In this document: positions 50,498 through 50,768 of the stretch, in pieces | Layout: each line of letters opens with the position of its first letter | Numbering within the stretch: the stretch's first letter is position 1 | Assembly: GCF_003334785.1 (NCBI RefSeq) | Contig: NZ_QOWV01000005.1 | Strand: one strand, 5' to 3' | Origin: Escherichia coli | GTDB taxonomy: Bacteria > Pseudomonadota > Gammaproteobacteria > Enterobacterales > Enterobacteriaceae | Length of the DNA stretch: 64,000 bases | The notes under the pieces: generated by a model | What the model was told of the DNA's origin: nothing | Databases searched by the model: none | What the model saw: the letters and a program-made list of their open reading frames with translations, nothing else | Position numbers and translations under genes: made by a program

Positions 50498-50546
50498 CAA
50501 AAAAAAGAGAAAAGTAAGCCGCCCTTTCAGGTGGATTACTTTTCTC
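50498..50546 (-). terminator. Intrinsic terminator in the yqcE 5' leader, 24 nt before the start codon
   Basis: Minus strand: GAGAAAAGTAA-(18-nt loop)-TTACTTTTCTC followed by TTTTTTTT. Confidence 0.6.
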
Positions 50547-50652
50547 AGGTCTCTAGTAATTGAAATAATAAATAACATGGAAAGCAGAGGTGTTGTGTGA
50601 GAGTAATCACGCTTCTGCTTTTTAAAATTATTTGACAATACGAATATCACAC

Positions 50653-50668
50653 TGTGATTACGATCACA
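50653..50668. promoter_or_regulatory. Consensus CRP site in the yqcE/ygcW divergent control region
   Basis: TGTGATTACGATCACA is a perfect TGTGA-N6-TCACA. Confidence 0.65.
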
Positions 50669-50721
50669 TTAGCAGTTATGCCCTTATGCTAAAAATTATC
50701 TCCAGTTACCAGAGATAATGA

Positions 50722-50768
50722 GAAAGGTAACTTCCCTCTCGCGGGGGAAGTTACCTTTCTTTTTTTTT
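50722..50768 (+). terminator. Strong intrinsic terminator in the ygcW 5' leader, 25 nt before the start codon
   Basis: GAAAGGTAACTTCCC-TCTCGCGG-GGGAAGTTACCTTTC (perfect 15-bp stem) followed by T9. Confidence 0.7.

Follow-up and report, generated by a model that had tools for sequence, protein, structure and literature searches.

Paired terminator leaders in the divergent yqcE and ygcW operons of Escherichia coli share a conserved RNA element and suggest YgcP-dependent antitermination

The ygc island of Escherichia coli contains two operons, yqcE-ygcE and ygcW-ygcU-ygcS-ygcR-ygcQ, whose first genes diverge from a 318-bp spacer. We analyzed this spacer, the two operon leaders within it, and ygcP, a gene of the same island less than 6 kb from the leaders, in a 64,000-nucleotide stretch of E. 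coli DNA (contig NZ_QOWV01000005.1 of assembly GCF_003334785.1; hereafter the window, with positions counted from its first base). The part from 50400 to 50860 matches K-12 MG1655 exactly, and the spacer region was found in 5068 of 5426 complete E. coli genomes, once in each (median, 1 place per genome). According to their annotation, the genes downstream of the leaders encode a KduD-type short-chain dehydrogenase/reductase (SDR), an FGGY kinase, a flavin adenine dinucleotide (FAD)-linked oxidase, electron transfer flavoprotein subunits, and major facilitator superfamily transporters. Namely, ygcE encodes the FGGY kinase, ygcW the KduD-like SDR, and ygcU the FAD oxidase; none of them is a glp gene. 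To our knowledge, neither the substrate nor the regulator nor the phenotype of the island has been described. An initial annotation made from the sequence alone had placed a terminator hairpin in each leader and a cyclic AMP receptor protein (CRP) site between the two, and had raised the hypothesis that YgcP acts on these leaders as an antiterminator, in the manner of GlpP. The coordinates of the features discussed here are collected in Table 1.

Table 1. Features of the yqcE-ygcW spacer and associated genes, in window positions
Feature	Position	Strand	Details and basis
yqcE	49197-50474	-	ATG at 50474
ygcW	50793-51578	+	ATG at 50793
ygcW leader intrinsic terminator	50720-50768	+	19-bp stem 50720-50761, U9 50760-50768; fold and Term-seq
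yqcE leader intrinsic terminator	50499-50546	-	Stem 50546-50507, U8 50506-50499; fold and Term-seq
ygcW leader transcript ecr2774, 73 nt	50700-50773	+	Romero 2014, Table S5
yqcE leader transcript ecr2775, 63 nt	50498-50561	-	Romero 2014, Table S5; northern blot
CRP site 1, TGTGATTACGATCACA, ygcW promoter	50653-50668		Centre 50660.5; ChIP-seq, footprint, PhyloScan
CRP site 2 (predicted), TGTGAGAGTAATCACG, yqcE promoter	50596-50611		9/10 core matches, centre 50603.5; sequence and spacing
ygcW 5' box, AGUUACC	50704-50710	+	Proposed antiterminator 5' strand, pairs with 50726-50732; fold and covariation
ygcW loop, AGAGAUAAUGAGAAA (GAGA-N4-GAGA)	50711-50725	+	Purine-rich, proposed protein contact; (near-)invariant columns, alignment A1
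ygcW arm, GGUAACU	50726-50732	+	Proposed antiterminator 3' strand, also part of terminator 5' arm
yqcE 5' box, AUUACU	50555-50560	-	Proposed antiterminator 5' strand, pairs with AGUAAU 50540-50535
yqcE loop, AGAGACCUGAGAAA (GAGA-N3-GAGA)	50541-50554	-	Conserved columns, fold
yqcE arm, AGUAAU	50535-50540	-	Proposed antiterminator 3' strand within terminator 5' arm
ygcP, PF04309 (G3P_antiterm)	56295-56870	-	Proposed trans-acting antiterminator; Pfam, co-occurrence

Both hairpins are present where they had been described, each followed by its run of eight or nine U residues and each lying exactly 24 nt before the start codon; the 15-nt arms assigned to the ygcW hairpin (50722-50736 and 50745-50759) are likewise exact. 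The ygcW hairpin has a predicted folding energy of -30.6 kcal/mol (z, -7.8) and the yqcE hairpin one of -20.5 kcal/mol (z, -4.9), and in neither case did any of 200 shuffled sequences prove as stable. A consensus scan found nine terminator-like sites between 49500 and 51800 where 2.2 were expected. The two stems share a word at the base, GAGAAARGTAAY. The window has five occurrences of it, where 0.71 would be expected, and all but one of them are arms of the two leader hairpins.

Short transcripts from both leaders have been published. Romero et al. (2014, Table S5) catalogued them as candidate small RNAs (sRNAs), ecr2774 on the ygcW strand and ecr2775, confirmed by northern blotting, on the yqcE strand. 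Their coordinates follow an older MG1655 numbering, which we shifted by 1978, a value checked against CsrB; an exact sequence match confirmed the resulting positions. The 5' ends so placed lie about 20 nt upstream of each hairpin, so that the terminators stand between promoter and start codon, as proposed, and the promoters do not map downstream of the hairpins; the 3' boundaries of the short RNAs coincide with the U-tracts in both leaders. Terminated leaders, which the initial annotation had suggested looking for by Term-seq, are also on record in that form: in lysogeny broth (LB), 3' ends were mapped 38 nt upstream of ygcW, with 40,640 reads, and 36 nt upstream of yqcE (Adams et al. 2021). 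In the same study, neither end was classed as Rho-dependent (Rho scores of 0.50 and 0.61, both "No"), the intrinsic-terminator scores were 15.8 for the ygcW leader and 11.4 for the yqcE leader, and no regulatory element was annotated for either 3' end (Adams et al. 2021). Thus, both leaders combine a G+C-containing stem-loop, a U-tract, and Rho-independent 3' ends formed in vivo, as expected of intrinsic terminators. We also considered attenuation by a leader peptide, which is ruled out by the distance of only about 20 nt from start site to hairpin and the lack of an open reading frame there.

The perfect CRP site placed between the hairpins is present as well, and the control by CRP that had been proposed is backed by published binding in vivo and in vitro. 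Chromatin immunoprecipitation sequencing (ChIP-seq) of CRP in enterotoxigenic E. coli (ETEC) points to site 1, a CRP footprint at this site gave a Kd of about 1.7 nM in vitro, an earlier computational prediction by PhyloScan pointed to it too, and yqcE-ygcE is listed as Crp-activated. Our analysis refines this picture to one CRP site per promoter. The second CRP-like site, on the yqcE side, was absent from the initial list of features; its centre lies 42.5 nt from the reported 5' end of the yqcE leader (50561), and that of site 1 lies 39.5 nt from the reported 5' end of the ygcW leader (50700). From the centre of site 1 to the first base of the ygcW box described below, the distance is 44.5 nt, which places the site at about -41.5 to -43.5 from the start site.

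Class II CRP-dependent promoters are those with a CRP site centred near -41.5 from the start site. The geometry of both E. coli promoters fits this class, with site 2 as a predicted site. The same spacing is found elsewhere. A protein search with YgcP yielded 64 loci, among which Enterobacterales loci were judged only where they were long enough. In every Enterobacterales spacer examined (about 50 species), a CRP-like site lies 43.5 to 44.5 nt upstream of the box of each leader (in a few species, 42.5 to 45.5 nt). This CRP-to-box spacing stays fixed even though the leaders themselves are anywhere from 126 to 334 bp apart. The short RNAs are abundant in LB though the genes are silent, which would follow if class II CRP promoters feed the leaders.

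Besides the terminator, each leader can form a second helix that uses part of the same sequence. Starting 1 to 3 nt after the start site, a box of the form (A/G)UUACY is complementary to RGUAA(C/U) inside the 5' arm of the terminator. The resulting alternative helix has 6 to 7 bp and closes a near-invariant loop of 14 to 15 nt, composed of AGAGA, three or four variable nucleotides, and GAGAAA. In an alignment of 89 distinct leaders, the 6-bp helix between box and arm is paired in 98.9% of cells, and three of the six pairs show compensatory change (GC in 64 leaders and AU in 23; AU in 84 and GC in 5; UA in 65 and CG in 20). No column shuffle out of 500 reached the observed helix values, and sliding the partner by one to three columns lowered pairing to 16 to 62%. 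The last arm position (position 12) is telling in this respect: in 87 of the 89 leaders it can pair with the box, whereas pairing with the 3' arm of the terminator is possible in only 29. The U found here in the yqcE leader of E. coli forms an A-U pair in the alternative helix, where the ygcW copy has G-C, and a U·C mismatch in the terminator. Folded on their own, the nascent 5' segments gave weak stem-loops, at -6.1 to -6.7 kcal/mol in the ygcW leader and -1.0 to -1.4 kcal/mol in the yqcE leader. Such a stem-loop is no match for the terminator unless it is held in place by something.

The element formed by these two overlapping structures is widely conserved. About 50 Enterobacterales species have two copies of it per locus, one ahead of ygcW and one ahead of yqcE. 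A search with a strict pattern found exactly two copies in each 20-kb locus, placed 20 to 37 nt before the ygcW or yqcE start except where an insertion intervenes. In all of these species, each leader carries the hairpin followed by U7-9; the stem base is conserved in sequence (GAGAAA(A/G)GURRC ... GYURCYUUUCUC), while the top of the stem is free to vary in sequence and retains its pairing. In every Enterobacterales locus that could be judged, ygcP sits with ygcW, yqcE, ygcE, and ygcU, and yqcE and ygcW are divergent. The element also precedes homologous operons in Listeria, Bacillus, and Thalassobacillus loci that have a ygcP homologue, the Firmicutes carrying a single copy ahead of the whole operon. 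When further YgcP-like loci were retrieved on protein identity alone, from Vibrio hannami, Clostridium sediminicola, and Sporomusa, all three had it, in two copies each; in V. hannami both copies lie within one divergent spacer. Overall, the occurrences of the element span four bacterial classes, and it was found nowhere but next to a ygcP homologue.

A covariance model built from the 89 leaders has just two matches in the window, the ygcW leader with 81 bits (50703-50768) and the yqcE leader with 71 bits (50500-50562); there was no further copy upstream of ygcN, in the ygcQ/ygcP gap, or elsewhere in the window. The two E. coli leaders are copies of one conserved RNA element.

Several loci depart from the common arrangement. 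In C. sediminicola (locus L072, 6269-6328) and Sporomusa (L073, 17129-17188), extra copies of the element stand at other places, inside the operon between the kinase and FAD-oxidase genes in Clostridium and before a BCCT-family transporter gene, so the regulon would differ between lineages. The spacer of Limnobaculum eriocheiris (L032, 13888-13949) has shrunk to about 130 bp and holds a single palindromic hairpin flanked by A9/T9, with neither boxes nor CRP sites; both promoters appear to have been deleted. In its sister species (L034), both hairpins are present, and their sequences are identical. In this Limnobaculum and in Budvicia (L041), the two hairpins within a locus are identical, yet they differ between species, which suggests gene conversion between the inverted copies. 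In Citrobacter youngae (L010, 16320-16470) and Klebsiella spallanzanii (L011, 12666-12816), an insertion of about 127 bp (...GAGCTTACTGTAGTAAGTGATTCGGGTGAGTGAACGCAGCCAACGC...) separates the yqcE terminator from the yqcE start. It may resemble repeats of the enterobacterial repetitive intergenic consensus (ERIC)/intergenic repeat unit (IRU) family.

The partner that the co-occurrence points to belongs to a family with a known role in antitermination. YgcP matches PF04309 over its full length (E, 1.6e-62; residues 12-184), and a homologue of solved structure (PDB 3KTS) matches with an E value of 1e-27. Besides ygcP, which is adjacent to the leaders in all sampled taxa, no other regulator-type gene is encoded in the island. 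YgcP is 56% identical to a YgcP-like protein of Listeria grandensis and about 59 to 62% identical to those of Vibrio and Clostridium, but only 30% identical to canonical Listeria GlpP. L. grandensis has both a canonical GlpP and the YgcP-like paralogue, which are 28% identical to each other. By these identities (55 to 62% across phyla), YgcP represents a distinct subfamily of PF04309.

GlpP, the canonical member of this family, acts on the glpD, glpFK, and glpTQ leaders of Bacillus subtilis in a glycerol-3-phosphate-dependent manner, and the glpD 5' untranslated region suffices for GlpP- and glycerol-dependent control of foreign promoters. We took the glpD leader sequence from the supplementary table of the corresponding paper and found in it the plan of the ygc leaders, GGUC-CUGAGAUGAGGAGA-GACC, with GACC opening the terminator arm. 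Leaders of Priestia glpD, of Lysinibacillus glpD and glpF, and of glycerol-3-phosphate oxidase genes in Lachnoclostridium and Faecalibacterium follow the same plan, with a 4- to 9-bp helix and a GAGA...GAG(A) loop. Folding of the nascent 5' segment gave the expected hairpin in six of the seven known or canonical glp leaders, the exception being Priestia glpF, with a 3-bp GUG/CAC only, and the model built from ygc leaders weakly matched three canonical glp leaders (30, 25, and 18 bits). The two systems thus share an intrinsic terminator in the 5' untranslated region directly past the promoter; a short 5' helix whose 3' strand opens the terminator 5' arm and which carries a purine-rich GAGA-N3-4-GAGA loop; several target leaders per regulator; and an overlying catabolite control. 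They differ in the box (GUUACY/RGUAAC with GAGAAAAG in ygc leaders, GGUC/GACC with GAGAGA in glp leaders), in the catabolite regulator (CRP at a class II position in the ygc system, CcpA in the GlpP system), in the Gram-negative host, and in the regulated genes. Since the latter are not glycerol genes, the ligand in the ygc system is probably not glycerol-3-phosphate. Canonical glp leaders of Bacillaceae (L068, 7608-7618 and 10179-10189; L069, 5176-5186; and B. subtilis glpD) further begin, directly past the -10 element and ahead of the box, with a conserved AGUUAAUA that has no counterpart in the ygc leaders.

Taken together, the co-occurrence with ygcP, the covarying alternative helix, and the glpD-like architecture support the hypothesis of YgcP-dependent antitermination of the GlpP type with which the initial annotation had closed; the support is comparative. 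In the model that we propose, two back-to-back CRP-dependent class II promoters would each transcribe a leader of the same type, made up of the box, the GAGA-N3-4-GAGAAA loop, RGUAA(C/U), the long hairpin, and U8-9, with the start codon following after 24 nt. In the default state, transcription would terminate as the strong hairpin (-20 to -31 kcal/mol) forms, and the products would be the short RNAs of 63 and 73 nt that have been detected in LB and glucose media. With inducer present, YgcP would attach to the 5' stem-loop, which is weak by itself (-1 to -7 kcal/mol), and hold the bottom of the terminator 5' arm. The lower 11 to 12 bp of the terminator would then be blocked and the upper hairpin left about 12 nt from the U-tract, an arrangement that should abolish termination because of the established requirements of intrinsic terminators. 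RNA polymerase would read through into yqcE-ygcE and ygcW-ygcU-ygcS-ygcR-ygcQ. GlpP responds to glycerol-3-phosphate, which GlpK makes; by the same logic, we infer the effector of YgcP to be a phosphorylated compound made by the FGGY kinase YgcE rather than glycerol-3-phosphate. Binding by YgcP, its dependence on a ligand, and the identity of that ligand are thus predictions of the model. For the model as a whole, we estimate a probability of about 0.7. The short RNAs, the Term-seq ends, and the binding of CRP had been published already; the conserved paired element, the alternative helix, the co-occurrence with ygcP, the shared design in six of seven glp leaders, and the assignment of one CRP site to each promoter are new here.

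A number of observations weigh against this model. The dominant Term-seq 3' ends fall at window positions 50755 (+) and 50510 (-), 12 to 13 nt short of the end of the U-tract and within the lower, A-U-rich part of the stem, which is not what simple termination would lead one to expect. RNA-seq coverage, unlike the Term-seq ends, extends to the U-tracts, and the offset may perhaps reflect exonucleolytic trimming. A consensus scan found no convincing promoter or -10 hexamer at the mapped start sites, where the hexamers are weak. The compensatory changes in the alternative helix reflect few independent events, perhaps four to six rather than dozens, namely, those between yqcE and ygcW copies in Enterobacteriaceae, in the isolate lineage L028, in Firmicutes, and independently in Sporomusa. 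Our literature search found no functional or experimental paper on YgcP, and the GAGA repeat is a candidate protein contact of our own proposing. Lastly, Serratia microhaemolytica (L045, 7431-8000) has a ygcP homologue (70% identity) between metH and fldB/ygfZ, and neither ygc genes nor the leader element were present within 10 kb downstream of it.

That orphan homologue would be easier to understand if the terminators were conditional and yet switched by something other than YgcP, with the 5' stem-loop binding a metabolite, as a compact riboswitch, or another host factor. A conserved loop and an alternative helix would suit a small aptamer too, and RNA binding by YgcP is itself predicted. We nevertheless consider this unlikely. 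A stem-loop of 6 to 7 bp with a 14- to 15-nt loop is very small for an aptamer, the element keeps company with ygcP homologues across four bacterial classes, and its design is common to a leader known to need the GlpP protein. Nor did an Rfam scan of 50200-51000 (E values up to 10) place any family at its gathering score: the best match, the SurA sRNA, reached 25.9 bits against a threshold of 100, and the remaining subthreshold matches, all weaker, were miRNA-like hairpins. The leaders might instead be what they were first catalogued as, functional CRP-controlled sRNAs acting in trans, with incidental read-through and with genes expressed from other promoters or barely at all. The abundance of the ygcW leader in Term-seq agrees with this, as does the hairpin with a U-tail, the usual 3' end of an sRNA. 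Yet a plain sRNA has no role for a covarying helix that overlaps its terminator, and in nearly every species the terminator keeps its 20- to 37-nt distance to a start codon from one of the same two gene families. The single Firmicutes copy before a whole operon and the Clostridium copy inside one also speak for control in cis, and between U-tract and start codon there is neither room nor signal for another promoter. On this evidence, a trans-acting sRNA seems quite improbable.

Two other readings start from the symmetry of the region rather than from its transcripts. Its ends (AAAAAAAAGAGAAAAGTAA ... TTACCTTTCTTTTTTTTT) and the inverted repeats I1 and I2, which span both leaders, recall the terminal inverted repeats of a mobile or repetitive element, such as a miniature inverted-repeat transposable element or a repetitive extragenic palindromic (REP)-like sequence. 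We rejected this candidate, which we regard as very improbable: E. coli genomes have one copy of the region (and the window no copies beyond the two leaders), its position is orthologous in about 50 species with a half-to-half spacing that varies from 126 to 334 bp, and each half has a CRP site and a start codon of its own at constant distances. Alternatively, the conserved half-sites GAGAAAAGTAA and TTACTTTTCTC, which form an inverted repeat, could be DNA operators of a DNA-binding regulator, the hairpin potential being a by-product. However, the spacer between half-sites ranges from about 14 to 33 bp with compensating changes in the stem, as would suit an RNA hairpin but not a dimeric operator; the mapped start sites are upstream of the repeats, and 3' ends form at the latter in vivo; and no DNA-binding regulator is encoded in the island. 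This candidate was rejected too, as the stem tops vary in length and covary, and we regard it as equally improbable.

Antitermination by YgcP can also be set beside other systems that control terminators in leaders. BglG of E. coli and SacY and LicT of B. subtilis, acting on the ribonucleic antiterminator (RAT), are alike in that a protein stabilizes a weak 5' hairpin overlapping the leader terminator of a catabolic operon. They belong to an unrelated protein family, and the ygc island has no CAT-PRD protein, RAT-like sequence, or link to the phosphotransferase system. HutP and TRAP recognize spaced short purine repeats in leaders whose terminators they control, and the tandem GAGA blocks of the ygc leaders might act in this way; in contrast, these are other proteins, the ygc leaders have two repeats in a closed loop rather than 6 to 11 repeats, and TRAP promotes termination. 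The closest earlier description of the E. coli leaders themselves is that of ecr2774 and ecr2775, the same transcripts, catalogued as simple stem-loop RNAs with no link to attenuation, YgcP, or CRP (Romero et al. 2014).

Extending the comparison with GlpP, the GAGA-N3-4-GAGA loop together with a helix that borrows from the terminator could be a general recognition element of PF04309 proteins. YgcP would then be a second widespread specificity class, present in Enterobacterales, Vibrio, Bacilli, Clostridia, and Negativicutes and sensing the product phosphorylated by YgcE. We offer this broader proposal tentatively and give it slightly less than an even chance. As far as we know, BglG is the only well-studied example of protein-dependent antitermination of a catabolic operon in E. 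coli; if YgcP acts as proposed, this species would have such control from another protein family. Two orphan "sRNAs" would be explained as attenuated leaders, YgcP would have a role, and the element, at about 65 nt, would be a compact switch that is portable and off by default. Leader fusions compared in the presence and absence of ygcP could serve as a screen for the inducer and thereby as a handle on the substrate of the ygc island, which is carried by more than 90% of complete E. coli genomes. The sequence-and-structure model, not in Rfam, is a means of finding targets of GlpP-family proteins in other bacteria.

Some minor observations concern the island as a whole. Parts of it decay in some E. 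coli lineages: in strain PK5 (L001), the annotation gives both ygcU (10249-11703) and ygcN (15739-17010) as pseudogenes interrupted by internal stops. Among the E. coli genomes searched for the spacer, one (hit H10) retains just 47 nt of it, and in another (hit H1) it aligns as two pieces. The convergent gap between ygcQ and ygcP (window positions 56170-56260) holds REP-type palindromes (...GCCTGATAAGACGCGTCAAGCGTCGCATCAGGC...) unrelated to the leader element.

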